The position numbers and the translations under genes were made by a program. The notes beneath the pieces were generated by a model, which was not told the origin of the DNA, searched no databases, and saw nothing but the letters and a program-made list of their open reading frames with translations. From a bacterium (GTDB taxonomy: Bacteria > Patescibacteriota > Minisyncoccia > Phycocordibacterales > Zambryskibacteraceae), in the NCBI GenBank assembly GCA_030649135.1, contig JAUSGI010000004.1:32001-96000 (forward strand): a stretch of 64,000 nucleotides of DNA, given 5' to 3'. The number at the start of each line of letters is the position of its first letter. The first letter of the stretch is position 1. Below, one piece after another: positions 4,465-63,506 of the stretch.

Positions 4465-6099
4465 ATGCAGCATTTCCCTGAATTATTTGAGACCCTGCTT
4501 AAACAGCGAGGCATCCTACCGGAGGAACAAGAAGATTTTTTGAGTCCTGACTATGAGAAGCTTTATGACCCCTTACTTCTGCCGGATATGCTCAAAGCTC
4601 GTGACAGAGTAATTAAAGCTATTAAGAACAATGAGCATATTGTCATCTTCTCCGACTATGACTGTGACGGCTTGCCGGGCGCGGTGGTATTCTCTGATTT
4701 TTTTGTGAGGATGAATTATGAAAACGTATCATTCTATATTCCACACAGGCATGATGAAGGCTTCGGTCTCAATCTCGGCGCGATAGAAGAAATCGCCGCC
4801 CGTGGCGCCGGACTCATGATTACTATCGATTGCGGTATCGCCAATACGGCGGAAGTGGCGTTCGCCAACGATAAGGGTATTGATGTTATCATCACCGACC
4901 ATCACAAACCGAACCCGACTCTGCCGGCGGCTTATGCTGTCGTCAATCAGAATAGGGAAGATTCAGATTATCCGTTCAAAGGACTCTGCGGCGCAGCCGT
5001 GGCGTTCAAGTTGGTGCAGGCTATAACCGCCCACGAAACTTTCGGCGTGAAGCCGGGTATGGAAAAGTGGTCTCTTGATATGGTGGCCATCGCCACACTC
5101 TCGGATATGGTACCGCTGACGGGTGAGAACAGAATTCTCGCAAGCTTTGGACTTAGTGTCTTGCGCAAATCTCCGCGACCCGGTCTGGCGGCACTTTTCA
5201 AAAGAATGAATCTCGACCAGAGAACTGTTTCGGAGGACGATGTTACATTCATGATTACCCCGCGCATTAATGCCGCCTCGCGCATGGGTATGCCGGAGGA
5301 TGCCTTCAAACTCTTGAAGACCAAAGACCACGAAGAAGCCGAGAGACTGGCTCTTCACCTAGAGAAAATCAACAATGAACGCAAAGGGGTGGTAGCAAGC
5401 GTTGTAAAAGAAGCTAAGTCACATTTAGCAAAACGCGAAGTGATTACCGATGTGATTGTGATCGGTAATCCGGATTGGCGTCCCGCGCTTCTGGGTTTGG
5501 TAGCAAATTCTTTGGTTGAGGAATATGAGAGGCCGGCATTTGTCTGGGGTCGAAGCGGTGACGGAACACTTAAAGGTTCGTGCCGTTCGTACAATGGCCA
5601 TGACCTGTTTGCTCTGATGAGTGTTACTGGTGATGCATTCGTGGAGTTTGGCGGACATGCCGGAGCTGGCGGCTTTTCTGTCACCCTCGAGAGTCTCACT
5701 ACGCTTGAAGAGAGGCTGTCCCAAGCTCTACCCGATTTGGGGGCCGGACTCACAGAGGCAGATGTGCCCGCTCTCCATATAAAATTGGACGATATCGGGG
5801 ACCACCTCTGGAGTCTCGTCTCACGATTTGCGCCGTTCGGCATGGGAAACGAGAAACCTGTTTTTAAAATTCCGCAAGCGGAAATCAAATCGGTAAAAAG
5901 ATTTGGCAAGGAGAATAATCATCTGGAACTTATGTTTAACGGCGGAGTCAAGGCTATTTCTTTTTTCTCCGACCCTGCTTCATACTCCGTCCTCCTTACT
6001 CCCGGCACTCGTATTTCTCTGCTTGCCAATCTAGAAAAATCTTTTTTCCGTAATCGTCCCGAATTGCGCTTGAGGATTGTTGATATCGTAGAATCATGA
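4465..6099 (+). CDS. recJ: single-stranded-DNA-specific exonuclease RecJ
   Basis: DHH-family motifs (DYDCDGL, ITDHH); 544 aa. Confidence 0.9.
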   Translation: MQHFPELFETLLKQRGILPEEQEDFLSPDYEKLYDPLLLPDMLKARDRVIKAIKNNEHIVIFSDYDCDGLPGAVVFSDFFVRMNYENVSFYIPHRHDEGFGLNLGAIEEIAARGAGLMITIDCGIANTAEVAFANDKGIDVIITDHHKPNPTLPAAYAVVNQNREDSDYPFKGLCGAAVAFKLVQAITAHETFGVKPGMEKWSLDMVAIATLSDMVPLTGENRILASFGLSVLRKSPRPGLAALFKRMNLDQRTVSEDDVTFMITPRINAASRMGMPEDAFKLLKTKDHEEAERLALHLEKINNERKGVVASVVKEAKSHLAKREVITDVIVIGNPDWRPALLGLVANSLVEEYERPAFVWGRSGDGTLKGSCRSYNGHDLFALMSVTGDAFVEFGGHAGAGGFSVTLESLTTLEERLSQALPDLGAGLTEADVPALHIKLDDIGDHLWSLVSRFAPFGMGNEKPVFKIPQAEIKSVKRFGKENNHLELMFNGGVKAISFFSDPASYSVLLTPGTRISLLANLEKSFFRNRPELRLRIVDIVES

Positions 6100-6554
6100 C
6101 TATTATTTACACAGATGGGGCGTCGAGGGGAAACCCTGGACCGGGGGGGTGGGGGGCAATAATTTCGAACGACAATTCCGTGGTAGAAATTGGCGGAAGG
6201 GAAGAGCATACGACAAATAACCGCATGGAACTTACGGCGGCAATCAAAGCTCTAGAATCGACACCGGATAAAGAAGTTACCGTTTACGCGGATTCGGAAT
6301 ATGTGACGAAGGGCATGACCGAATGGATCAAGAGATGGCAACAGAAAGGCTGGAGGACGGCAGGTAAGAAGCCGGTACTCAGCCAAGATTTATGGCAGAA
6401 ACTCCTCGAGCTTACGGAGGGAAGACGAGTGGAGTGGAAATATGTGGCAGGACATGCCGGTGTGCCTCTCAATGAGCGCGCGGACGAGATAGCTACCACT
6501 TTTGCCGATAATCTTCTACCCAAACTTTATAATGGACCAAGAGGTAAGTACTAA
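6096..6554 (+). CDS. rnhA: ribonuclease HI
   Basis: TDGASRGNPGPGGWG, TNNRMEL and NERADE motifs; overlaps recJ stop by 4 nt. Confidence 0.9.
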   Translation: MTIIYTDGASRGNPGPGGWGAIISNDNSVVEIGGREEHTTNNRMELTAAIKALESTPDKEVTVYADSEYVTKGMTEWIKRWQQKGWRTAGKKPVLSQDLWQKLLELTEGRRVEWKYVAGHAGVPLNERADEIATTFADNLLPKLYNGPRGKY

Positions 6555-46020: not shown

Positions 46021-47346
46021 TCAGCTGTTCTTGTGCCACCCAACAAGCCTGTCAGAAATATTTGTAATACTCCCGGCTCCCATAAAAAGTAAGACATCCC
46101 CATTAGCAACCTCATTTTTAATTGTATGGAGTACATCTTTGAAATTTCTCACAAATCTAGTGGGTTGAGAAAGGGCAATTTTTTGGGCCAGACTTTTCGC
46201 GCCTCGATTTTTTTTAGAATCCGATTCGCGGCCCAGAACCGTATAAGTTTCGAGGATTATCACTTGGTCAGCTTCGTGGAAGGCCTTAGCAAAATCCGAA
46301 AAAAGTAAGGATAGACGTTCCGCTAGATGTGGCTGGAATATAACCCAAATTTTAGCTTTAGGAAATTTTTCTCTGGCACCGGATAATGTTGCTTTAATTT
46401 CCGTCGGGTGATGTGCATAATCATCGTAAATCTTCGCTTTTCTATATATACCGCGGTACTCGAATCTGCGCCACGTTCCCATAAATCTAGAAAATACCTT
46501 GTCTCGAACCAAAACTGGAATACCTAGAAAACTTCCCAATGTATCACAAGCCATTGCGTTTGAATGATTATGTGCTCCCGGAATTTTCAAGAGGGATTTT
46601 ACTTTTGCTGCTCGTGCTCCTTGCCGATCATAATATGCTATCTTTGTCTTGGTCTTTAATTGTAACGATGCAAGATTTTTGTCTTCGTGGTTCAATACCA
46701 GATACCCATTCTCCTTCACCCTGCTGATAAAAGTACGGAAGGCTTTTTTAATATTTTCGAACGTCTTATAAAACTCAAGATGCTCCCGGTCAATATTGGT
46801 AATAATAGCTGCAAATGGAGTGTAATGAAGAAACGAGCCGTGGAACTCATCTGCCTCCAAAACAAGCCATTCTGACTTTCCCTTCCGAAAATTAGAATCA
46901 CCAAACGCCTTTAGTCTCGTTCCCACTATGATAGTGGGGTCAAAGCCGGCTTTCAGAAGCATCAATCCTACTAACGCTGTCGTTGTGGACTTTCCATGAG
47001 CGCCGGCGACTGCGATTGTCTTATAATTTTTCGTCAGCTCGCCAAGCGCTTCGGCGTAGGAAAATTGTGGAATTTTGAGTGACGTTGCCTTTTTACGTTC
47101 GGAATTTTCTTTTTTAACAGCGACACTATAAATCACACGCGAAACATCAGGACTAAGCCAGTTAGCGTTATGGAGGCCAGTATGTATTACCGCACCATGA
47201 CGAATTAAATTATTGGTGATAGGTGAACGAATAGCATCGGAGCCGGTAACATGCCAACCTTCCGAAAGATACCACTGTGCCAAAGCAGAGACACCAATAC
47301 CACCAATCCCGACAAAATGTACTCTCCGGTTTTTTGCTTGGCTCAT
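46021..47346 (-). CDS. murC: UDP-N-acetylmuramate--L-alanine ligase
   Basis: VHFVGIGGIGVSALAQWYL...VTGSD Rossmann N-terminus and GKSTTT P-loop; start at MSQAKN (the longer ORF reads through the adjacent tRNA). Confidence 0.85.
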   Translation of the reverse strand: MSQAKNRRVHFVGIGGIGVSALAQWYLSEGWHVTGSDAIRSPITNNLIRHGAVIHTGLHNANWLSPDVSRVIYSVAVKKENSERKKATSLKIPQFSYAEALGELTKNYKTIAVAGAHGKSTTTALVGLMLLKAGFDPTIIVGTRLKAFGDSNFRKGKSEWLVLEADEFHGSFLHYTPFAAIITNIDREHLEFYKTFENIKKAFRTFISRVKENGYLVLNHEDKNLASLQLKTKTKIAYYDRQGARAAKVKSLLKIPGAHNHSNAMACDTLGSFLGIPVLVRDKVFSRFMGTWRRFEYRGIYRKAKIYDDYAHHPTEIKATLSGAREKFPKAKIWVIFQPHLAERLSLLFSDFAKAFHEADQVIILETYTVLGRESDSKKNRGAKSLAQKIALSQPTRFVRNFKDVLHTIKNEVANGDVLLFMGAGSITNISDRLVGWHKNS

Positions 47347-47356
47347 AGATAACGTG

Positions 47357-47430
47357 TCCACCCTCTTGGATTCGAACCAAGGACCCCAGAGGTATAAGCT
47401 CTGTGCTCTAACCAGCTGAGCTAAGGGTGG
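47357..47430 (-). tRNA. tRNA-Ile with anticodon UAU
   Basis: minus-strand cloverleaf CCACCCT-TA-GCTCAGCTGGTTAGAGC-A-CAGAG-CTTATAC-CTCTG-GGGTC-CTTGG-TTCGAAT-CCAAG-AGGGTGG-A; perfect 7-bp acceptor; anticodon loop CUUAUAC; CCA not encoded. Confidence 0.75.
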
Positions 47431-47458
47431 TATCAACACAATATCTCAAAATAGCGGT

Positions 47459-49672: not shown

Positions 49673-50356
49673 TCAGTACGGGAAGTATCCCCGTGTATAG
49701 AACAAAATCCTGTCCGGCATGGCCTTGTCCGCATTCGCTAAGAGGTACTTCTCGAGGGCTCCCGCCGTATTGCAGACGGAAGAGTCTTTGATGCAGAACT
49801 CATGGACCCAGGTCATGCCACCGTCGCTGAAGGCGACATGCGTTGCCGTGCCGGGTATGTCATGCTCGAGGGCGCCACGCGCGTCGAGACGTCCGCCAGC
49901 GGACATCTCGTCCATGTCTTTCTTGCTCATCCGCAGAGACATGTTCACCTGAAGCCAGCCATCAGGGCTGGTATAGGCGAACCAGTGGAACTTCTCGCCA
50001 TTGTACCAACCGACGCCCCAGCCGACCGACCTGTCGAGAGCTCGACCTTTGTCATCGTGGGTCTCGAAGGCAAGGAACTGATACCTTACCCAGGGGTGCA
50101 GTTGGGGTGCCAATGCCCGGAGCCGTTGGTCTTGCAGGTCCATGATAATGGTGTCGTTGCGCGCCTTCTCGGTAGGGGTGAGCTCCGGTGCCGTCTCGAG
50201 TTGAGCGGCATTTGCCGAGGCAGCATTCGCCCGGGGGGCGGCTGCCCGTATGACCGGTTCGGGCTGTGGCGACGGCGGTGTTGAGCTGATACTTTGGTGC
50301 ACTACGACTGTGAGTAGGCCTAAGCTAACAAGCAGTGCGCCACGCGACAGTGTCAT
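49673..50356 (-). CDS. hypothetical secreted protein (G+C-rich)
   Basis: signal peptide; GAGGAGG SD; Pro/Ala-rich linker; W-rich domain. Confidence 0.45.
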   Translation of the reverse strand: MTLSRGALLVSLGLLTVVVHQSISSTPPSPQPEPVIRAAAPRANAASANAAQLETAPELTPTEKARNDTIIMDLQDQRLRALAPQLHPWVRYQFLAFETHDDKGRALDRSVGWGVGWYNGEKFHWFAYTSPDGWLQVNMSLRMSKKDMDEMSAGGRLDARGALEHDIPGTATHVAFSDGGMTWVHEFCIKDSSVCNTAGALEKYLLANADKAMPDRILFYTRGYFPY

Positions 50357-50888: not shown

Positions 50889-50918
50889 CCTTATTCTCCT
50901 ATTCGAGCGAATTAGAGA
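50889..50918 (+). repeat. ArsR-associated imperfect palindromic repeat, copy 1
   Basis: CTTATTCTCCTATTCGAGCGAATTAGAGAT; arms ATTCTCCTATTCG / CGAATTAGAGAAT. Confidence 0.8.
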
Positions 50919-51162
50919 TATATTTTGAGATGTGGTGGGGTTGCGAGGGGAGTCGGTACCACATTTGAAGGCCCCTTTGTTCTTTCTCCACAATATCCAC
51001 TGCGGCCAGCACATGGAGATGTTTGGAAGTAGCCTTGAATGAGAGTTTGATATGCTCGGCGATGTCCCCGACGGTAGCTTCCTTGCTCTTTTTCAAATAT
51101 TTAATAATAGTCAGGCGTCTCTGATTGGCTAAAGCTTTAAGTAGTCTTTCGAGATTTTTCAT
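50899..51162 (-). CDS. ArsR/SmtB-family transcriptional regulator
   Basis: LKALANQRRLTIIKYL...TVGDIAEHIKLSFKATSKHLHVL wHTH; the last three codons lie inside repeat copy 1. Confidence 0.8.
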   Translation of the reverse strand: MKNLERLLKALANQRRLTIIKYLKKSKEATVGDIAEHIKLSFKATSKHLHVLAAVDIVEKEQRGLQMWYRLPSQPHHISKYISNSLE

Positions 51163-51185: not shown

Positions 51186-51223
51186 CTTATTCTCCTATTC
51201 GCGCGAATTAGAGAATAGATTTG
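51186..51223 (+). repeat. palindromic repeat copy 2, in the divergent arsR / 51260 promoter region
   Basis: CTTATTCTCCTATTCGCGCGAATTAGAGAATAGATTTG. Confidence 0.8.
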
Positions 51224-51259: not shown

Positions 51260-51535
51260 ATGGATGAAGGTGAGCAGGCAACCGAGTTCTGGTTGGACAA
51301 GAATCTCAGTTGTACCGAGTTCATCAAGGCGTTTGAGTCTCACTTTCAGGGAGGTCGGGTCGAAAGCCTATCCTTGGTGCGGGTTGCCAAGCCGGGGTAC
51401 ATGCTTTTCCATCTGAGTGTGCCGCTCGAGAGAAAAGGGGAGCTCCTCGTGTTTCTCCATGAGTACGCCGAGACACGCGACGCCGACAGCGATTGGAAGA
51501 CGGCGGGCGTCCATCCATTCAATCTATTTTCATAA
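51260..51535 (+). CDS. small acidic protein, paralog A
   Basis: EFWLDKNLSCTEFIKAFESHFQGG; leader TGATAAAATAAGGGAGGAGGTGTCATATG is shared with paralog B. Confidence 0.45.
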   Translation: MDEGEQATEFWLDKNLSCTEFIKAFESHFQGGRVESLSLVRVAKPGYMLFHLSVPLERKGELLVFLHEYAETRDADSDWKTAGVHPFNLFS

Positions 51536-51589
51536 CCACGCGTCGGACGGAGCATCGCGCTCCGTCCGACGCGGTTTTGTTTTTAGTAA

Positions 51590-52486: not shown

Positions 52487-52524
52487 CTTATTCTCCTATT
52501 CGAGCGAATTAGAGAATAGATTTG
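52487..52524 (+). repeat. palindromic repeat copy 3, upstream of the 51590..52438(-) gene
   Basis: differs from copy 2 at one position (A vs C). Confidence 0.8.
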
Positions 52525-52534
52525 TATAAATAGA

Positions 52535-52568
52535 AAATCGGGTTCCGCGAGGCGCGGAACCCGATTCG
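52535..52568. terminator. perfect GC hairpin
   Basis: cgggttccgcgaggcgcggaacccg. Confidence 0.5.
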
Positions 52569-52590: not shown

Positions 52591-52947
52591 CTACAGGACG
52601 GTCCACTCGTCTGGGTCGGGCTGCTTGAAGCGCCCAGCGAAAGGGCCATCTGGCCGCCGCATGGCGTGCTGTTTGTGGGGAATGACGTGTTCCCCAAGCG
52701 CGCGAAGAAGCTCGTGCGGGGAACTCGCATACCCGGCGCTGACTTTCCGCTCGAAGCGTCGCCCAAGGTGCAGGACGAATGCTTCGGAGTTGCCCATCTT
52801 GATATCATCGTCCTCTTCCCAGATGAACACTCTTCGCTTTACCGTGGGGTTGCCCGGCACTGGGTCGACACCTACATAGGCATCGACGATATACCCCAGT
52901 ACCTCACCTTTTCCCAACCAATCGTAGAAGCCGATCTCGTTGGCCAT
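52591..52947 (-). CDS. hypothetical protein (G+C-rich)
   Basis: GGGAGG SD and TATAAT upstream; a plus-strand ORF 52588..52968 overlaps it and is the alternative. Confidence 0.35.
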   Translation of the reverse strand: MANEIGFYDWLGKGEVLGYIVDAYVGVDPVPGNPTVKRRVFIWEEDDDIKMGNSEAFVLHLGRRFERKVSAGYASSPHELLRALGEHVIPHKQHAMRRPDGPFAGRFKQPDPDEWTVL

Positions 52948-53063
52948 GTGGCCTCCCGGCGCGCCTGAATTTCATTCCTCTCATATTATACCATATATCA
53001 ATATATTATACAAGTAGATAAGGTGCTCATTTTTTAGTGATAAGGTATGAGAGGAGGTGTGAT

Positions 53064-53330
53064 ATGAGAGATGATATGCGGGTGAGCGAGTTCAGATTAG
53101 ATGAAGATTTCGACCGTGACGAGTTCGTAAAGGCGTTCAAGACCTACTTCGAGGGAGGTGATGCCAAAGATCTGGAAGTTGTTCCCGACGCGATTTTGTT
53201 TTATAAAGGACGAGTGTCGCTTATTCTACTATTCGCACGAATTAGAGATGTAGAGGGGGGGGATTGGGTTGACAATTCAAATAATATATCATACACTTTT
53301 GAAAGAGCCACATGCGTGGCTATGCTCTAA
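53064..53330 (+). CDS. small acidic protein, paralog B
   Basis: EFRLDEDFDRDEFVKAFKTYFEGG aligns to paralog A; leader GAGGAGGTGTGATATG is conserved; repeat copy 4 and a G8 tract lie in its 3' end. Confidence 0.45.
   Translation: MRDDMRVSEFRLDEDFDRDEFVKAFKTYFEGGDAKDLEVVPDAILFYKGRVSLILLFARIRDVEGGDWVDNSNNISYTFERATCVAML
53220..53250 (+). repeat. palindromic repeat copy 4, degenerate, inside the 3' end of the 53064 ORF
   Basis: CTTATTCTACTATTCGCACGAATTAGAGATG. Confidence 0.7.
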
Positions 53331-53358
53331 ACCCGAAACCACTTAATGAGGGAGGCAG

Positions 53359-54039
53359 ATGATGGTAATCAGGGGAGGCATCCCCGCGATCGTGCGAAAC
53401 GATGCTGGTTGCTACGAAGGCAACCTAGTGTCGTACTTCCAGATCCTCTGGAACCACGCACAGAACCTCAACAACCCGTACCACAACTTCCGGCACATCT
53501 GCCACGTCCTGTGGTTGTGCCACGAGGCGTGCCTGTACTACACGAAGTACTACCCGAGCGAGCTGACATTGCGGCAGAAGAGGAATCTACTCATCGCAGC
53601 GCTTTTCCACGACTTCGATCACACCGGCAAGTCGGGACCCGACTGGATGAACATCGCGATAGCGATGAGGGCCATCGATCGGTTCCTTCTGCCGGAGGAC
53701 CGTCCGTACCGCATGGACATCTCCCGTCTGGTTTCCTTCACGGAGTATCCGTACGCCGTGGGTCCAGAGGATCTCGACCTCTCGGCACTCATCCTCCGCG
53801 ATGCGGACATGGGCCAGGCGTTCAGCGTGGCCTGGATCCAGCAGGTCATCTTCGGTCTTGCTGCCGAGTGGGGCAAGACTCCGCTCGAGGTGGTCAAGAT
53901 GCAAGGGCCGTTCCACGAGAAGGTTCGTTTCCACACCAAGTGGGGGCAGAAGATGTTCCCCGCTTCGGATGTGAGAACGAAGATCAATGAGGCCACTGAG
54001 CTTCTCGAACTGCTCACCACCGAACCCGTTCTGGCCTGA
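53359..54039 (+). CDS. HD-domain phosphohydrolase with class-I cyclic-nucleotide-PDE-like motifs (G+C-rich)
   Basis: PYHNFRHICHV and LFHDFDHTG (cf. PDE YHNxxHAADV / HDxDHPG); 226 aa. Confidence 0.5.
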   Translation: MMVIRGGIPAIVRNDAGCYEGNLVSYFQILWNHAQNLNNPYHNFRHICHVLWLCHEACLYYTKYYPSELTLRQKRNLLIAALFHDFDHTGKSGPDWMNIAIAMRAIDRFLLPEDRPYRMDISRLVSFTEYPYAVGPEDLDLSALILRDADMGQAFSVAWIQQVIFGLAAEWGKTPLEVVKMQGPFHEKVRFHTKWGQKMFPASDVRTKINEATELLELLTTEPVLA

Positions 54040-54042
54040 GAC

Positions 54043-54098
54043 ATCGCCCCGCCTGATGAATCGCCCCGCGGCTCATCAGGCGGGGCGATTTTATTTTA
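54043..54098 (+). terminator. strong hairpin terminator after the PDE-like gene
   Basis: ATCGCCCCGCCTGATGA ... TCATCAGGCGGGGCGAT (17-bp stem) then TTTTATTTTA. Confidence 0.65.
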
Positions 54099-54109
54099 TA
54101 GAGAGTAGG

Positions 54110-54177: not shown

Positions 54178-55410
54178 ATGGCGCGAGAAAAGACCATTTT
54201 ACATATGGATGGAGATGCCTTCTTCGTCGCCTGTGAGGTCTCGAAGAATCCCAAGCTCAAGGGTAAAGCAGTGGTGACAGGCGAGGAGCGCGGGATAGTC
54301 TCGGCCCTCTCATACGAAGCGAAGGCGCTTGGGGTAGTTAGAGGCATGCCGATATTTTCCTTGCGCAAATCGTTTCCAAGTGTCTTAGTGCTGCCGGGAG
54401 ATTATGCTTGTTACGCGCGACTCTCGGGAGAAATGTTTGACATCGTGAGGAGGTATGCCGACGAGGTCGAGGAGTACAGTATCGATGAGTGTTTCGCCGA
54501 TCTCTCCGGCCTAGATAAGCCGCTTAAAATGAGTTATAGAGAAATTGCGGAGCGGATAAAGAAAGAAATCGAAAGCGAACTTAGACTCTCTGTCTCTATC
54601 GGGCTCGGGCCCTCAAAGGGGCTCGCCAAGGTGGCGTCGAAGTGGCAGAAGCCCAATGGTCTTACAGTGATAGAAGCAAAGACGGCCCCAGATTTTCTCA
54701 AAAAGACTCCGATTGAGAAAATCTGGGGCATCGGCCCGCGCACAGCAGAGTTTCTAAAGAAGAAAGGAATAGGAACTGCCGGCGAGTTCGCCTCGCGTGA
54801 ACTCGCCTGGGTCAGAAAGGAACTTTCCAAACCTTACGAAGTTATTTGGAGAGAGCTCAACGGTGAATACATCATGGAGTTAGACCCCTTGCCGAAGACT
54901 GTCTATTCCTCTGTCCAGAAGACAAGGACATTTCACCCGGCGACAGGGGACAAAGTCTTTCTCCTCTCCGAACTTTCTAAGCATGTGGAAGAAGCGTGCC
55001 GCAAGGCGAGGTACTACCACCTCGTACCGAAGAAGTTTTCTTTTTTCCTCAAGAGCCAGAGCTTCAAATATTTCTCTTACAATATAAATCTTCCCTCGCC
55101 CACTAATGCTCCGGAGACGCTGGTCGCTCTAGTCCGTAAACATTTCAAAGAAGTTTGGAGAGAGGGAATACTCTTCCGTACCACTGGAGTGGTGTTGCAA
55201 GAGCTTGCTCCGAGAGCGGCAATGCAGGGAGATTTGTTCGGAGGCTCCGATAGAGCCGGTAAGTTTGAAAAGATTCATGGTCAGATCGACGCTCTGGAAG
55301 AGAAGTTCGGCAAGTCGGTAGTCTATCTCGCCTCCACTCACCAGTCCCTGAAGCGTAAAAAGGTCGGCACCGACTCCGACGACCTCGACCGCAACCTGCT
55401 GTTTTTGTGA
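54178..55410 (+). CDS. dinB: Y-family DNA polymerase IV
   Basis: ILHMDGDAFFVACE...; little-finger domain; ~410 aa. Confidence 0.9.
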   Translation: MAREKTILHMDGDAFFVACEVSKNPKLKGKAVVTGEERGIVSALSYEAKALGVVRGMPIFSLRKSFPSVLVLPGDYACYARLSGEMFDIVRRYADEVEEYSIDECFADLSGLDKPLKMSYREIAERIKKEIESELRLSVSIGLGPSKGLAKVASKWQKPNGLTVIEAKTAPDFLKKTPIEKIWGIGPRTAEFLKKKGIGTAGEFASRELAWVRKELSKPYEVIWRELNGEYIMELDPLPKTVYSSVQKTRTFHPATGDKVFLLSELSKHVEEACRKARYYHLVPKKFSFFLKSQSFKYFSYNINLPSPTNAPETLVALVRKHFKEVWREGILFRTTGVVLQELAPRAAMQGDLFGGSDRAGKFEKIHGQIDALEEKFGKSVVYLASTHQSLKRKKVGTDSDDLDRNLLFL

Positions 55411-55412
55411 GG

Positions 55413-55442
55413 GTTTGTTTTAAGCCAAAATTTGTGGGATTA
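55413..55442 (+). promoter_or_regulatory. conserved promoter/operator motif, copy 2 (ATPase gene)
   Basis: GTTTGTTTTAAGCCAAAATTTGTGGGATTA. Confidence 0.55.
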
Positions 55443-55460
55443 TTTTGTGCAAGTATATTT

Positions 55461-56606
55461 ATGGATGTAGAAATAAAGAAACAACCAAAAACCAGCATTA
55501 CTGAGGATATTGATTGTGTAATTAAGCTTGAGCCACTTACAATTTTTGCTGGGAATAATAATTCAGGTAAGACTCATTTGATTAACGCTATAGGGAAAAA
55601 ACTGTCTGAGAATGACATAAATGTTGTGCATATCCCAAGTGAGAGGATACTTGTAGAGAATGAATTGAAGACAGGAGCAGAAAAGGATCCATTAAGAGCG
55701 GCTCTCGGTGATTTGATTGAGTTTGCTTTTGATGCCGACAGTTCAATCTCTAGTGATGTTTCTGATATCTCAGTAATACTTCCTGCTGAATTTATACAAT
55801 ATGGTATTGAGAATATAGATATTTCGGTAAAGACAAACACTCTCACTAACGATGAATATAAAAAAGCTTTAAAAGATGCTCACATAAAAAAGCTTATCGA
55901 TTCCATAGTTATATCTGACAAATACTGTGGAGTTGAGGACATAAGTCCATCAAATGTGGGTCAAGGAACACAAAGAATGATTGTCGTTTCTCTAATTAGA
56001 TATCTACAGCGTAAAAAATTTGAGAAGGATGGTCGAACAAGTAAACCAACATATATTATTTTTGAAGAACCAGAGATATACCTTCACCCAAAAATGAAGG
56101 CAACCTTGTATGCACTAATTCAAGCCATAGCTAATGATGGAAGATTGAATACTAAAGTTATCTTAACTACCCACGACCCATACTTTATTGATATGGGTAG
56201 AAATGCAAAAATTTATCGGGTCTTTAGGGATCCTTTGAAGAATTTTTCTACACAATTAATGGATGTACAAAAAGACGTATTACTGTACCCATCTTCTGCA
56301 GAAATAAACTATATTGTATTTGAGCAGGTTAGCCCTACTTATTTACTTGAATTGTATGAAAGTAAAAAACAAGAAACTGAATTAAAGCTTGGAAAGAAGT
56401 TGGGAGGTCTTAAGTATTATGAATTCGATCTAGCTTTATTTAATAAAATTGGAGAACCTCAATCTTCTACTGATGATGATGGACATCCCGTTACGTTTAT
56501 AACTCGGATAAGGCATGATATGGCACACCCCTCTACCTCCATATTAGATTCTTTTGAGTCTAGAGGAAAGGAAGCTATTGAAAAATTAAGAAATTACAAA
56601 GCTTAA
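55461..56606 (+). CDS. AAA15/AAA21-type ABC-like ATPase (PtuA/OLD-N-terminal-like)
   Basis: Walker A GNNNSGKT; Q-loop/signature-like NVGQGTQR; Walker B TYIIFEEPEIYLHP; H-loop LTTHDP. Confidence 0.7.
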   Translation: MDVEIKKQPKTSITEDIDCVIKLEPLTIFAGNNNSGKTHLINAIGKKLSENDINVVHIPSERILVENELKTGAEKDPLRAALGDLIEFAFDADSSISSDVSDISVILPAEFIQYGIENIDISVKTNTLTNDEYKKALKDAHIKKLIDSIVISDKYCGVEDISPSNVGQGTQRMIVVSLIRYLQRKKFEKDGRTSKPTYIIFEEPEIYLHPKMKATLYALIQAIANDGRLNTKVILTTHDPYFIDMGRNAKIYRVFRDPLKNFSTQLMDVQKDVLLYPSSAEINYIVFEQVSPTYLLELYESKKQETELKLGKKLGGLKYYEFDLALFNKIGEPQSSTDDDGHPVTFITRIRHDMAHPSTSILDSFESRGKEAIEKLRNYKA

Positions 56607-56610
56607 ATCT

Positions 56611-56640
56611 GTTTGTAAAACTCTAAAATTTGTGGGATAT
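56611..56640 (+). promoter_or_regulatory. conserved promoter/operator motif, copy 3 (HNH gene)
   Basis: GTTTGTAAAACTCTAAAATTTGTGGGATAT followed by a GGAGG SD. Confidence 0.55.
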
Positions 56641-56653
56641 TTGGAGGACAAAC

Positions 56654-57841
56654 ATGGAAGATGAAATAAAGCGATATTTTGAGGGCATAGATCTTGATAT
56701 TCGGAAGCAATCTCGGGGCTATTCACGCTTCATGGATCAGAAAGTTGCTCCAGATGTCCTGTCTTTTATTGCTGATTCTGTAGTCAATTCTATGGATGGA
56801 AAGGAGCCTGGTACCACCTTTACCATTGGTGATGTATGGGAGTTTCCTTACTTTGTAAAAAATACAGAAGCTGTATTCGGGAAACCCTCTCCAGAAAATG
56901 AAACCACGGAATCTGAGTATGATAAATTTATCGCCCAGCCCTTAAAAACCCTTGCTTTTGCTAAGATTCTGGAAGAAGAAAAAGTTGGAGGGAAAAATAC
57001 ATATAAGGTTCTAAGGCCCGATATTTTGGAGTATATTTCTCAAAGCGAGAAAAACGCCTTTATATTTTTAGTCCTCTATATTGAAAAGGTTTTATCTGAC
57101 AGTGGATTCATAAAAAACTTCGAGGAATATAGGGAAAAGGCGCAGTCAAATAAACTAAAACCAGAAGATCTTGAAATATTAAAAAAAAGATTCCAAAAAT
57201 TCATTTTGGGCAATACCAATATAAATGGCGTAATAGAAATAAATAGAGTATTTCCGAAAGTTCTAAATCCTTATGCAGCTTCACATCAAATTCCAGGAAT
57301 AGAAAGGGGGCACATAACTTCTGGTAGATTTATTTACCCAGATCTCATGTATAACCGAGAAAATTTTAGGGACATTGGAAAAGACAAGACTGTAAGTAGA
57401 CAAGAAGCGTTAAGAGAAATTACTCAGCAGCCAGAAGTTGTTGAATATCGAGTTCAAAAAGCAAAAAGTATTATACGGCGCCATCATTCAAGTAGTGAGG
57501 TTAAGGATAGCTTGGCAGTAGGCGAAGCGACTCAGGTTCATCATATTTTTTCAGACCATGAATTTCCTGAAATATCTGATTATATTGAAAACCTTATTTT
57601 ACTAACACCTCAGCAGCACAACACAAGAGCTCATCCAAAAAATAAAACAAATACCGTTGACGCAGAGTATCAAAGGGAATGCTTGTTATCTAAAATTGAT
57701 TCGATTGAGATGTCCGTAAGTAAGCGAGACAGCCTGTATTCTAAGGAAAGATTTATACACGTTGTGAATATTGGCTATGAACTTGATCTCTCGACAAATA
57801 CTAGTTTTGAAGAATTGAGAGATATTATTCGAAAGAGATAG
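56654..57841 (+). CDS. HNH-motif protein (PtuB-like partner) with a large N-terminal domain of unknown function
   Basis: C-terminal region QVHHIFSDHEFPEISDYIENLILLTPQQHNTRAH (HH...N...H); start at MEDEIKRYF (the listed ORF uses an upstream TTG). Confidence 0.55.
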   Translation: MEDEIKRYFEGIDLDIRKQSRGYSRFMDQKVAPDVLSFIADSVVNSMDGKEPGTTFTIGDVWEFPYFVKNTEAVFGKPSPENETTESEYDKFIAQPLKTLAFAKILEEEKVGGKNTYKVLRPDILEYISQSEKNAFIFLVLYIEKVLSDSGFIKNFEEYREKAQSNKLKPEDLEILKKRFQKFILGNTNINGVIEINRVFPKVLNPYAASHQIPGIERGHITSGRFIYPDLMYNRENFRDIGKDKTVSRQEALREITQQPEVVEYRVQKAKSIIRRHHSSSEVKDSLAVGEATQVHHIFSDHEFPEISDYIENLILLTPQQHNTRAHPKNKTNTVDAEYQRECLLSKIDSIEMSVSKRDSLYSKERFIHVVNIGYELDLSTNTSFEELRDIIRKR

Positions 57842-57845
57842 TTTT

Positions 57846-60365
57846 CTAGCGATTTATGCCAAAAAAGAATACTGAATTATTGTCGATGTTTAAAGATCTG
57901 GTACCGTGATTCCTTGCTACTCGATAAAATTGGGTGAATTCGTCTGTTCCAAAATAATCAAGGTCTTTTAGAGTTATCTTAGCTCCGGGTTCTTTTAGGG
58001 TGAGGATTGCCACAGACCCATCAACAAGCGTGTTCTCTGGTAAAAATGAAGCTCTGGGAGCATAGGTCAGGTTTGGCACCAAGACGCTATTTTCTTTATT
58101 CCAAAACTTAGAGATTGATAACCCGTCTAACGAATCAACATAAGAGTCATAATTTGGAATGTTCAGGATCTCATTTCGTCCGATATTTCTTGATTTCAAT
58201 ATTCTTATTTTCCCCTTGTTTTTTGTTATCTTTTTTGTAATTTGTCGATCTCTGTAAGATGTAAATATATTGAATCGAAGTTTTTTTGCAACGAAGTCAA
58301 AGAATTCATTTCTGTACACCAACCAGTAAGGAAAATCTTTCGAACAAATATAAGATTGATCTTTATAACCAATTTCGTTTTTTACATAAGACTCAACGAG
58401 AGTCCGGGCCCCTTTATTACGAGTATTGATAATCAAACTGATTGTCTCAATCTTCACACCCCTGAACCCTTTTTCTCCATAGTCTGTGATTTTTTCAATG
58501 GCAAATGACGAAGCAAGTTCTCTTGTTTTGTTAAATTCGGGTGCTGATAGAAAACTTTTGGGAATAATAAGACCTACGGTATCTCCTTGTTGCATTGCTT
58601 TCTCGAGAAAAAAAGAAAATAGATTATTTGTTTCGGCATTATATTTATTCTTCTTATAAGTGTTTAGGAGAACTTTATTTTCAGATATATCTCCGAATGG
58701 TGGATTGCCAATAACGATATCGTATCTTTTAGATTGGCCAAATAAATTAGTCTCTCCATGCAATAGAAAATCTGCGTTAATTAAATTGATCTTGATATTT
58801 TTTGGAACATCAAGTTTTTTTAGTAAAAGTTTAAGAATCTCAATTGCATTTTTGTCGATATCAACTACATCAATAGTTACCTCCTTAACTGTTTTATATT
58901 TTTGAACAAGAAGCGGGAGAAAATTACCAGCACCGACTGATGGTTCTAATATAGAAAGTTTTTCAAACTTTGATACATCAGGAAGATCTTTTACTATAGT
59001 GAAGCAAATGTCCTGTCTGGTGTAATACGCGGCGTGCTGAAGACGTTGGGCATTTGAAAGCTCGACGATTTTAGCTAATTCGGGGTAGCTAAAATTTTGC
59101 ATATTCTCTTCGAGAAAAGTCTTAATATTTTCTTCTATATTAAGCCTTTCATCTTGGATTAATTTTTTTATTTGGATTTCATTATTTTCAACATTTCTAA
59201 GCTTTGACTTGATATTTTTAGCTATACCGTTGAATATAATTGTGGGGACTGCCTCACCTAGTGATTGTCTTATATTTATCTCTTCTTTCTTGAGAATTTT
59301 CCTCTTTTCTTCATTTGACAACTTATTTAATTCATCAAGCGGAGTAGATACCCAATTAAAAGAATCTGGTACGGACATCATTCTCATTAACTCTCTAATA
59401 CTAAATACCCTGTTATCTTTTGGATGAATGGTTGCTTGGCTCGCAAATATATCGTTTCGGGTATGTATACAAGGAGCAACTTTATCCCAATAACATCGTG
59501 AGTATTTATCTCCGTTCTTGTTTTCATTGTGTACAATCTTTCCGTTTATGATTTGGTGAGGTCGCTTTTTGGCATCAGTATTATCAAACGCAGATTGTCC
59601 CTCCTTGGTATTCTCAATCCAAGAAAGCATATGCTCAGCGTACGGACGAAAATTGTGATAGATGTCCTTTTTATCAATCTCACCCATATTTTTAAGAGAT
59701 GAAAGGTTGCCTATCGTATCACGCAAGGTACCACCATCTTTCAATACTGGCATTAGATCAAGAGGTGTAACTTCTTGAATATCTTTTCGTACTCCTATAA
59801 CGAGTGTTCGGGTTCTACTCGATGGATTACCATAATCTTTGAAATTGATTACTTGATAGTGGATGTTATATTTACCTCCAAGATTTACTTCAATTGCTTC
59901 ACGAATTTGTTTTTGTTTCTTATCGATGTCAGTGCAGAGTGTAGATAGAAAAGCCCTCACATTCTCAAATATAAAAACTTTCGGTCTAATTTCATCTACA
60001 ATTTTTATTGATTCAACGACAAGAGAATTTCGTTCAAGCTCATCCCTTTTTTTGTGATTGGCTACAGACATACCCTGACATGGGGGTGTTGCCAATAAAA
60101 CTTCAACTTCTTTTAAACCTTGCTTTGATTTCCAGAGATCAATTTCTGAAAATATTTTTTCTTGAGTGGCTTTTTTTGTGATGTCATCAGCAATATAACC
60201 ACTTGGATATAAACACTTATTATTATGTCTTTGCACATCCAAACGTCTGTTCATAAGTTCAACAGTTGCAACACAATCAAATCCTTCTTTAGAAAAACCA
60301 TAGCAACCAACGCCGGCGCTACTGAATAAACTTATATATGTTAATTTTTTATTTTGGTTTTTCAT
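57846..60365 (-). CDS. fused DNA methyltransferase: N-terminal C5-cytosine MTase plus C-terminal N6-adenine (gamma-class) MTase
   Basis: C5 motifs: I (FSSAGVG), IV (PPCQGMS), VI (FENVRAF), X-like (GEAVP). N6A motifs: I (LEPSVGAGNF), IV (NPPFG). 839 aa. Confidence 0.75.
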   Translation of the reverse strand: MKNQNKKLTYISLFSSAGVGCYGFSKEGFDCVATVELMNRRLDVQRHNNKCLYPSGYIADDITKKATQEKIFSEIDLWKSKQGLKEVEVLLATPPCQGMSVANHKKRDELERNSLVVESIKIVDEIRPKVFIFENVRAFLSTLCTDIDKKQKQIREAIEVNLGGKYNIHYQVINFKDYGNPSSRTRTLVIGVRKDIQEVTPLDLMPVLKDGGTLRDTIGNLSSLKNMGEIDKKDIYHNFRPYAEHMLSWIENTKEGQSAFDNTDAKKRPHQIINGKIVHNENKNGDKYSRCYWDKVAPCIHTRNDIFASQATIHPKDNRVFSIRELMRMMSVPDSFNWVSTPLDELNKLSNEEKRKILKKEEINIRQSLGEAVPTIIFNGIAKNIKSKLRNVENNEIQIKKLIQDERLNIEENIKTFLEENMQNFSYPELAKIVELSNAQRLQHAAYYTRQDICFTIVKDLPDVSKFEKLSILEPSVGAGNFLPLLVQKYKTVKEVTIDVVDIDKNAIEILKLLLKKLDVPKNIKINLINADFLLHGETNLFGQSKRYDIVIGNPPFGDISENKVLLNTYKKNKYNAETNNLFSFFLEKAMQQGDTVGLIIPKSFLSAPEFNKTRELASSFAIEKITDYGEKGFRGVKIETISLIINTRNKGARTLVESYVKNEIGYKDQSYICSKDFPYWLVYRNEFFDFVAKKLRFNIFTSYRDRQITKKITKNKGKIRILKSRNIGRNEILNIPNYDSYVDSLDGLSISKFWNKENSVLVPNLTYAPRASFLPENTLVDGSVAILTLKEPGAKITLKDLDYFGTDEFTQFYRVARNHGTRSLNIDNNSVFFFGINR

Positions 60366-62804: not shown

Positions 62805-63506
62805 ATGACCCTACTAGAACTCAAACGAAAATTGAGAGCCATTCAAGCTCTCGGATTTGTAAAGACACATCGTACAGGTGATACAGGCATTGGGAAAACG
62901 CTCGAGGATCTTCTTGGTATTAAAGAAAACAATATCCCACTTCCTGATATCGGCGAAATAGCAGAACTCAAAGCATATCGAAAAAATGCAACATCAATGC
63001 TGACGCTTTTTACGCTTGAACCTCGACCTAAAGGTGGAGATCGCGATCGAGTACTTCTGGATAGTTTTGGCTATTCAAAAAGAGATAATGGTCGCTCAAA
63101 AGAATTGCATAGCACTCTTTCGTGTAAGCGTTACAACAATCAAGGTCTGAAGCTCAAGGTTGAGAAAGATAAAGTGCGAGTCGTTGGCAAAGGCAGGAGA
63201 TTAAATATTTACTGGGACATGGAGGATCTCCAAAAGAAATTCGAGGCAAAATTGCCAGCCTTAGTATATGCACTAGCAGACTGTAAAGAAGTAAGAGGTG
63301 TCGAGCATTTCCATTTTAACCAAGCTTTCTTTTTAGAGGGCTTCGATTTTGAACACTTCAAAAGTCTGGTAAAGAAAGACGCCATTGTTGTAGATTTTAG
63401 AATGTTTTATCGTCCAAGTGGCTCCGTCCGTAATCACGGCACTGGTTTTAGGGTAAAAATAAAACAACTCTATAACTGCTTCGACACAAAGGTTGAGCTG
63501 ATTTAA
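62805..63506 (+). CDS. Type II restriction endonuclease, MvaI/BcnI-like
   Basis: TGDTGIGKTLEDLLGIKENNIPLPDIGEIAELK...SMLTLFT matches my recollection of the MvaI/BcnI family N-terminal region; convergent with an MTase. Confidence 0.6.
   Translation: MTLLELKRKLRAIQALGFVKTHRTGDTGIGKTLEDLLGIKENNIPLPDIGEIAELKAYRKNATSMLTLFTLEPRPKGGDRDRVLLDSFGYSKRDNGRSKELHSTLSCKRYNNQGLKLKVEKDKVRVVGKGRRLNIYWDMEDLQKKFEAKLPALVYALADCKEVRGVEHFHFNQAFFLEGFDFEHFKSLVKKDAIVVDFRMFYRPSGSVRNHGTGFRVKIKQLYNCFDTKVELI

Follow-up and report, generated by a model that had tools for sequence, protein, structure and literature searches.

A compact HD-domain protein in a patescibacterial genome resembles the class I phosphodiesterase catalytic domain and belongs to a family most diverse in jumbo phages

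Combining profile searches, structure prediction, residue-level alignment and genome comparison, our analysis describes a gene in a 64,000-nucleotide stretch of a Zambryskibacteria-like genome (the window; contig JAUSGI010000004.1, assembly GCA_030649135.1) and the HD-superfamily protein that it encodes. Its alignments and predicted fold mark this HD protein as a small and divergent relative of the class I phosphodiesterase (PDE) catalytic domain rather than a bona fide member of that class, and we put at about 0.55 the probability that it acts as a phosphodiesterase on a small nucleotide. We suggest a stand-alone, cytosolic, metal-dependent enzyme of the HD superfamily whose core would be a cut-down class I domain of the PDE1-11 type. 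The gene and the motifs that carry this reading are:

53359-54039, forward strand: coding sequence for 226 amino acids (aa), taken from the list of open reading frames (ORFs), a predicted compact class-I-PDE-like HD phosphodiesterase
53479-53496, forward strand, aa 41-46: YHNFRH, aligned by HMMER and HHalign to YHNWRH of PDE5A (H613, H617)
53608-53628, forward strand, aa 84-90: HDFDHTG, aligned to HDLDH of PDE5A (H653, D654, H657)
53797-53817, forward strand: RDADMGQ, containing D150, the predicted fourth metal ligand and last Asp of the HD signature
53899-53913, forward strand: MQGPF, containing Q182 and F185, the candidate purine-binding glutamine and phenylalanine clamp

The best Pfam match of the HD protein is PDEase_I (PF00233; E 1.1e-5, 25.7 bits against a gathering cutoff of 24.8), while the generic HD model (PF01966) reaches only 14.5 bits over aa 44-150, ending at profile position 111 of 116; the H...HD...D signature in an all-helical fold places the protein in the HD superfamily. 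Among ten diverse members of the clade from the candidate phyla radiation (CPR), the nine that gave a match all scored higher with PDEase_I than with HD, the tenth being sub-threshold, and seven of the ten passed the PDEase_I cutoff, the matched part of the profile in relatives running from positions 1-47 to 1-84. In jumbo-phage and other distant relatives the two models score about equally, PDEase_I giving 19.5-24.4 bits, below its cutoff. Neither NCBIfam nor any component model of PADLOC-DB 2.0 matches the protein; PHROG 16069 ('phosphohydrolase') does so with E 6.6e-21, aa 31-200 covering profile positions 36-220 of 245.

Searched as a single sequence against solved structures, the protein finds PDE10A, PDE5, trypanosomatid PDEB1 and PDE8A at E ~2e-5, and a 44-sequence family profile finds only class I PDEs among the 60 PDB matches listed (best E 3e-8). 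The AlphaFold2 model built from the same 44-sequence alignment is confident (predicted local distance difference test score, pLDDT, 95.5; predicted TM-score 0.91) and has 11 helices; Foldseek against the PDB returned only class I PDEs among the 50 matches listed. The structural scores of HD-GYP PDEs and of Legionella SidE-family PDE domains are far below those of class I PDEs, and the HHExxDGxGYP motif of the HD-GYP enzymes is absent from the HD protein. The profile comparison, in which PDEase_I scores above HD, and the structure prediction, whose listed PDB matches are class I PDEs, had both been proposed as checks in a preliminary description of this DNA made from the sequence alone.

For the residue mapping we used catalytic-domain sequences of PDE5A and PDE4D that are 100% identical to PDB chains 2H40_A and 1OYN_A. 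HHalign, run with a profile of 112 family members (63 cellular and 49 viral), aligned the family to these two PDEs with a probability of 97-98% and E 5.5e-11 over 201 columns, pairing query positions 7-224 with positions 46-317 of the PDE5A construct, and scored 76.3 against 20.5 for a reversed PDE alignment; with the 44-sequence alignment against PDE4D alone, only the N-terminal motif was aligned. The correspondences with PDE5A that this alignment predicts are:

H42: H613, the general acid in class I PDEs
H46: H617, a metal ligand in class I PDEs
H84 and D85: H653 and D654, metal ligands in class I PDEs
H88: H657, the HDxxH histidine
D114: D724, the Asp of the 'ATD' motif
D150: D764, a metal ligand in class I PDEs
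W159-I-Q-Q: W772-P-I-Q-Q, an aligned motif
Q182: Q817, the invariant glutamine in class I PDEs
F185: F820, the clamp phenylalanine in class I PDEs

By alignment, then, the four metal ligands and the general-acid histidine that mark class I are in place, and all are invariant. Y41, H42 and H46 are unchanged wherever a residue is present (111 of 112 sequences, one being gapped), H84 and D85 never vary, H88 is kept in 111 and D150 in all 112. Together with D95, N98, T128 and E170, these positions make up the set that is universal or nearly so in cellular and viral members, whereas D114 is conserved in the cellular clade only. Towards the C-terminus, Q182 occurs in 94 and F185 in 110 of the 112 sequences. 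We consider the N-terminal residue mapping strong and that of the Gln/Phe pair moderately supported by alignment and model. Taken alone, the C-terminal half gives the same Q182/F185 mapping in HHalign with a score of 21.1, above all nine controls (14.0 for the reversed alignment, 7.5-11.9 for eight column shuffles); BLASTP against PDE5A gave no C-terminal high-scoring segment pair. A circular permutation was considered and is not supported, because the HHalign alignment is collinear and sets P-E-D114 opposite A-T-D724. A further conserved segment, IVRNDxxxYEGN (aa 10-25, 53386-53433), weakly resembles the 'I(I/L)ATDLALY(FGN)' helix of PDEs (E ~0.03 by HMMER and BLASTP).

On this mapping we propose a mechanism in which H46, H84, D85 and D150 would coordinate a binuclear metal centre. 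Hydroxide bound to the metal would attack the phosphate and H42 would protonate the leaving 3'-oxygen, with Q182 and F185 perhaps holding the base, possibly a purine. The predicted reaction would yield a 5'-nucleotide from a 3',5'-cyclic nucleotide or from some comparable small nucleotide diester.

The protein also diverges from class I. The class I domain (PF00233; human PDE5A, 2H40; PDE4D, 1OYN; PDE9A, 2YY2; PDE10A) has ~330 aa and 16 helices, compared with 226 aa and 11 helices here, so that the HD protein falls short of the 16-helix, three-subdomain domain of ~270-330 residues; relative to the HD family, HHalign places insertions of ~41, 12 and 9 residues in the class I PDEs. The protein also has no regulatory domains, and its hosts are prokaryotic and viral, unlike those of class I PDEs. 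The class I metal motif has been quoted as H(X)3H(X)25-35[D/E] (PMC4320098). H42-x3-H46 is present, and the spacer to D85 counts 38 residues against 34 in typical family members by alignment count, because the HD protein carries a 4-residue insert. The PROSITE signature PS00126, H-D-[LIVMFY]-x-H-x-[AG]-x(2)-[NQ]-x-[LIVMFY] (PMC5617230), is broken: HDFDHTGKSGPD fits it through H84-D85-F-D-H88-T-G90-K-S and then has G93 instead of N/Q, the invariant N98 lying five residues past the break. The preliminary description had spoken of 'eukaryotic-type (class I) PDE-like motifs'; the PDE-like part is borne out by motifs and fold, and 'eukaryotic-type' was an overstatement for a protein that is ~100 residues short, departs from PS00126 and matches only a small part of the Pfam model.

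That last observation belongs with several others that weigh against our interpretation. The PDEase_I match is confined to aa 41-91 and to profile positions 1-49 of 238, ~20% of the model. HHalign support for the C-terminal half is no more than marginal (P 0.0024), and a HMMER profile of that half finds PDE5A and PDE4D no better than it finds shuffled sequences; the Q182/F185 assignment therefore rests on collinearity and fold. The Glu/His of 'MEHHH', which organise the water shell of the second metal in PDEs, lie within the absent ~41-residue stretch. As for the regulation proposed below, the putative operator sits upstream of the -35 hexamer and not over the promoter. Lastly, the literature yielded no enzymatic data for any bacterial or phage member of the family.

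A different chemistry is also conceivable. The HD protein could be a small (d)NTP pyrophosphohydrolase or 5'-nucleotidase of the YpgQ, YfbR or 2pq7 type, with which jumbo phages and nucleotide-scavenging CPR bacteria would reshape or salvage nucleotides, and it would then be no diesterase of signals. Small stand-alone HD hydrolases (PDB 2PQ7; Bacillus subtilis YpgQ, 5DQV; E. coli YedJ, 3GW7) align over only 164-174 residues and are not known to have the HNxxH general-acid histidine or the HDxxH signature. Those two signatures and ~40 extra aligned residues are PDE-specific features of the HD protein, PDEase_I outscores HD in every CPR-clade member tested that gives a match, the Q-x-x-F pair is conserved, and a sporadic, mobile distribution is unlike that of housekeeping salvage. 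We regard such a nucleotide-pool enzyme as unlikely, and as a smaller share of the probability than phosphodiesterase action on a small nucleotide.

The family to which the protein belongs is large. A word-index search returned 655 homologues, nearly all 216-245 aa long and unnamed, most of them from metagenome-assembled genomes (MAGs) of Patescibacteria; besides an identical database protein (P0001, 225 aa) the closest is 69% identical. An exhaustive search gave 1807 representatives at 50% identity, 1001 of them with E<=1e-10, and most of the 150 representatives listed are of single-domain length or shorter. In one-genome-per-species data we found 68 loci, mostly in Paceibacterota/Parcubacteria, with some in soil Alphaproteobacteria, Acidobacteria and Verrucomicrobia at ~50% identity. 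None of 72,556 plasmids carried a match. A literature search found no paper describing the family.

On the viral side, IMG/VR contributed 52 loci, many on contigs of >150 kb, and all 60 matching records among the 50,697 of INPHARED are jumbo phages of 227-735 kb, among them Lu11, PaBG, Noxifer, BcepSauron/Saruman, ~300-kb Klebsiella phages, Lak megaphages and jumbo phages of Erwinia, Dickeya and Yersinia. Annotated phage copies are named 'phosphohydrolase', and the jumbo-phage 'metal-dependent phosphohydrolases' of PHROG 16069 (Pseudomonas phage Lu11 gp288, PaBG, Burkholderia phage BcepSauron gp223, the ~300-kb Klebsiella phages, Lak megaphages) are members of the same family, with tblastn identities of 24-34%. 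These same jumbo-phage proteins are also the fold matches in BFVD (Foldseek E down to 1e-10). They are distant relatives (about 25-33% identity) that share the invariant residues, differ by not keeping the D114, N14 and G21 found in the cellular clade, and have PDEase_I scores below cutoff. In a neighbour-joining tree with midpoint rooting only, the viral branches are deep and diverse and the cellular sequences form one derived clade, within which an IMG/VR contig group and a soil-bacterial subclade are nested. The family is thus most diverse in jumbo phages, with one clade spread sporadically through Patescibacteria.

This distribution raises the question of whether the enzyme is a dedicated degrader of immune signals, that is, a phage anti-Pycsar, anti-CBASS or anti-type-III-CRISPR protein present here as a phage-gene remnant or a defence off-switch. 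Such a role concerns biology more than chemistry: it overlaps with phosphodiesterase action on a small nucleotide and would specialise it. The concentration of the family in jumbo phages speaks for it, as does the position of the gene in defence or toxin islands in two genomes. In their jumbo-phage survey (PMC7824862), Iyer et al. predict that jumbo-phage phosphodiesterases, HD-superfamily ones included, counter nucleotide-based defences; the HD-superfamily enzymes listed there are of the HD-GYP and alarmone types. Weighing on the other side, no signal-generating enzyme was found among the scanned window proteins or in the 68 related loci, PADLOC gives no match, many copies sit amid housekeeping genes, and the gene here has no flanking phage hallmark genes and no experimental link to immunity. 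We judge this role very unlikely, and the 'anti-defence' enzyme that the preliminary description considered is a hypothesis that the context leaves unsupported. A broader conjecture, which we hold only tentatively and think improbable on balance, is of a minimal, virus-centred class I PDE with which jumbo phages would destroy host cyclic-(oligo)nucleotide immune signals, an HD-fold counterpart of Apyc1 and Acb1, of which CPR bacteria would have captured one lineage; the same family could also be the prokaryotic or viral source that, by gaining helical insertions, gave rise to the eukaryotic PDE catalytic domain.

Across genomes the HD gene stands alone and moves horizontally as a single gene. 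When 1666 ORFs from 124 loci were clustered all against all, no recurrent neighbour emerged, and no Pfam family recurs among 122 flanking proteins, where LigT/2H and TrmB occur three times each and the rest are singletons. The neighbours vary from an island with Fic, AbiEii, TaqI-type restriction-modification (R-M) and ParE genes, through ribosomal protein L21, RmuC and ribonucleotide reductase, to DUF1801 and GrpB; in phages they are mostly hypothetical genes, with one copy in a replication module and one near an RNA 2'-phosphotransferase. The G+C content of the gene departs by >5 points from its flanks, in both directions, in 36 of 62 genomes as against 3 of 51 viral contigs. In two soil MAGs of different phyla, Alphaproteobacteria and Blastocatellia, the copies (L039 5937-6692 and L045 946-1700) are 93.8% identical in DNA over the HD gene only. 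We take the gene to be an accessory one that would travel alone between genomes. Three other loci (L035, L037 and L069, assigned to Alphaproteobacteria and 'Chthoniobacterales') are 94-98% identical along several kb, as would be expected if a single lineage had been mis-binned.

These neighbourhoods bear on yet another chemistry, in which the protein would open 2',3'-cyclic nucleotides, RNA ends or an Appr>p-like phosphate and serve RNA damage or repair in phage-host conflict. LigT/2H is the most frequent neighbour family, yet accounts for only 3 of the 122 flanking proteins (3 loci), and in Klebsiella phage MJ359 (L127 5110-5679) the RNA 2'-phosphotransferase lies two genes off; together these neighbours hint faintly that the chemistry may involve cyclic phosphates or RNA repair. 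Hydrolysis of 2',3'-cyclic nucleoside monophosphates is a known activity of HD-domain enzymes (PMC13262624), one that the literature describes as often non-specific. Set against this, the associations are few and statistically unassessed, and the closest folds are those of 3',5'-specific PDEs. We find such an activity distinctly unlikely.

That the gene is real and intact follows from its conservation. A product matching the coding sequence 100% is in the databases as P0001, whose 225 aa correspond to a start at the second ATG (53362), and this is the likelier true start, since the Shine-Dalgarno sequence GGGAGG lies just 3 nt before the first ATG. The G+C content of the gene is 58% against 46% for the window, and at third codon positions (GC3) 0.80 against 0.48-0.59 in SecY, FtsH, RecG and DinB. 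Long ORFs overlap it in other frames (53346-53990, forward; 53619-54044, reverse), by-products of the high G+C content. These overlapping frames, and the decay of small ORFs nearby, would fit an ORF that arose by chance in a G+C-rich insert, or a decaying pseudogene. We give that explanation practically no weight, as full-length alignment to hundreds of homologues and fully intact catalytic residues rule it out, and the confident structure model and the gene's own Shine-Dalgarno sequence, promoter-like site and terminator tell the same way.

The signals that surround the HD gene, and the nearby regulator gene, are:

53220-53248, no strand assigned: fourth copy of the ArsR-box palindrome, with 2 mismatches, found by pattern search, 21 nt 5' of the -35 hexamer
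53269-53297, forward strand: putative sigma-70-like promoter TTGACA-17-TACACT, 10 of 12 consensus matches, from a consensus scan only
53350-53355, forward strand: Shine-Dalgarno sequence GGGAGG, from reading the sequence
54043-54100, forward strand: intrinsic terminator, a hairpin followed by a T-tract, from inverted-repeat search and RNA folding
50899-51162, reverse strand: ArsR/SmtB-family helix-turn-helix regulator of 87 aa (Pfam HTH_5, 1.1e-9)

The terminator hairpin (54043-54089) has an uninterrupted 17-bp stem and four more pairs, followed by UUUUAUUUUAU, with a folding free energy of -42.8 kcal/mol (z -6.9; 0 of 200 shuffles fold as well). With its promoter, Shine-Dalgarno sequence and strong terminator, the HD gene would form its own transcription unit. 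Four copies of a 29-nt imperfect palindrome, CTTATTCTCCTATTCGNGCGAATTAGAGA, were located in the window by pattern search, against 0 expected by chance, all in the same orientation and confined to 2.4 kb (50890-50918, 51186-51214, 52487-52515 and 53220-53248). One copy, 51186-51214, lies at the 5' side of the ArsR gene and another, 50890-50918, over its 3' end; the ArsR protein has no obvious metal-binding Cys motif. The same 29-nt box stands by ArsR orthologues in unrelated metagenomic loci: in L135 on both sides of the gene (5893-5921 and 6256-6284), in the same geometry as in the window, and in L171/L209 just upstream of the orthologue (1314-1342). This recurrence supports the box as an ArsR operator, probably one that has been multiplied locally, with the 87-aa protein as its likely binder. 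The neighbouring ArsR-family repressor may, through the operator copy 111 nt before the ATG, control the HD gene, a possible link that we infer from the arrangement of the sites. On the features of the gene itself the preliminary description has stood up well: the 226-aa ORF with YHNFRH and HDFDHTG, its high G+C content, the upstream ArsR-box repeat and the downstream terminator with a 17-bp stem are all where it placed them.

Along the window, core genes (SecY, Map, NDK, FtsH, an amidase, a Mur ligase and RecG) are followed by a mosaic at 49.6-54.1 kb that holds the HD gene, then by dinB, a low-G+C insert, lexA, TspO, tRNA-Ser and lastly, just past the tRNA, a restriction enzyme of the MvaI/BcnI type (62805-63506). 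The low-G+C insert (33-36%; 55407-60365) encodes an AAA_15 ATPase of AriA/Old/GajA-like type that lacks a Toprim domain, together with a type II restriction enzyme and a fused double C5-methyltransferase of 839 aa; PADLOC models for an AriA/Old-like ATPase, a type II restriction enzyme and a methyltransferase matched these neighbours. Our scan of window proteins covered 46-64 kb together with SecY, Map, NDK, FtsH and the amidase, leaving ORFs below ~34 kb and small ORFs at 37-42 kb outside it, and among the proteins scanned there was no nucleotide cyclase, CD-NTase, TIR or Cas10. Where the preliminary description saw a 'defense-rich island', a type II R-M system and an AAA_15 ATPase lie nearby, along with dinB and lexA, and no maker of a nucleotide signal is among the scanned proteins. 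Its suggestion of a signalling module is without contextual support, since no signal-making enzyme is nearby and no neighbour is conserved in the 68 genomes.

The recG-dinB interval is a patchwork of foreign single-gene inserts, the HD gene and two other G+C-rich ORFs among them. No HD homologue is present in any of 79 metagenomic loci that carry a dinB orthologue (53-82% identity). In one of them recG and dinB are arranged as they are here and lie 5.4 kb apart, with no other query protein detected between them; six have an ArsR gene nearby. Given this absence, and the box beside ArsR orthologues elsewhere, the HD gene appears to have inserted recently, as a single gene, behind one copy of an operator that was already there; it would have been acquired recently by this Zambryskibacteria-like genome, into a variable interval. 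The host is placed by its SecY, which matches a MAG protein at 100% identity and SecY of Candidatus Zambryskibacteria at 85-88%, as a Zambryskibacteria-like member of the Patescibacteria.

Several further observations concern the surroundings. Two small ORFs, 51260-51535 and 53037-53330 (both forward), are paralogous (33% identity, E 1e-10), and the second looks truncated: ~47 homologous codons are followed by a remnant of the terminator tail of the first copy (53185-53202, matching 51566-51583) and then by the box, which points to a segmental duplication, since decayed, immediately 5' of the HD gene. The two other G+C-rich ORFs, 49673-50356 and 52591-52947 (both reverse), have a GC3 of 0.70 and no match to Pfam, PADLOC or other families. 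The first, of 227 aa, has a signal-peptide-like N-terminus, and no paralogy between it and the HD gene was found; the second, of 118 aa, is accompanied by a G+C-rich hairpin of its own (52536-52566). The 5' extension of the Mur-ligase ORF (46021-47439) contains a tRNA-Ile (47356-47430, reverse) whose anticodon, TAT, is unusual, and the ligase must start further downstream, because its Pfam domain begins at aa 40.

Class I PDEs are usually described as mainly eukaryotic (PMC4320098). By combining conservation across cellular and viral members with a predicted fold, our analysis outlines a large prokaryotic and viral family in which the class I catalytic residues, and apparently the nucleotide clamp as well, are retained in a protein two thirds as large. 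If its members do cleave cyclic nucleotides, they would represent a fourth structural route to the turnover of cyclic nucleoside monophosphates in bacteria and a candidate counter-defence enzyme of jumbo phages, and would offer a minimal scaffold on which to ask which parts of a drug-target PDE fold serve catalysis and which serve base recognition.

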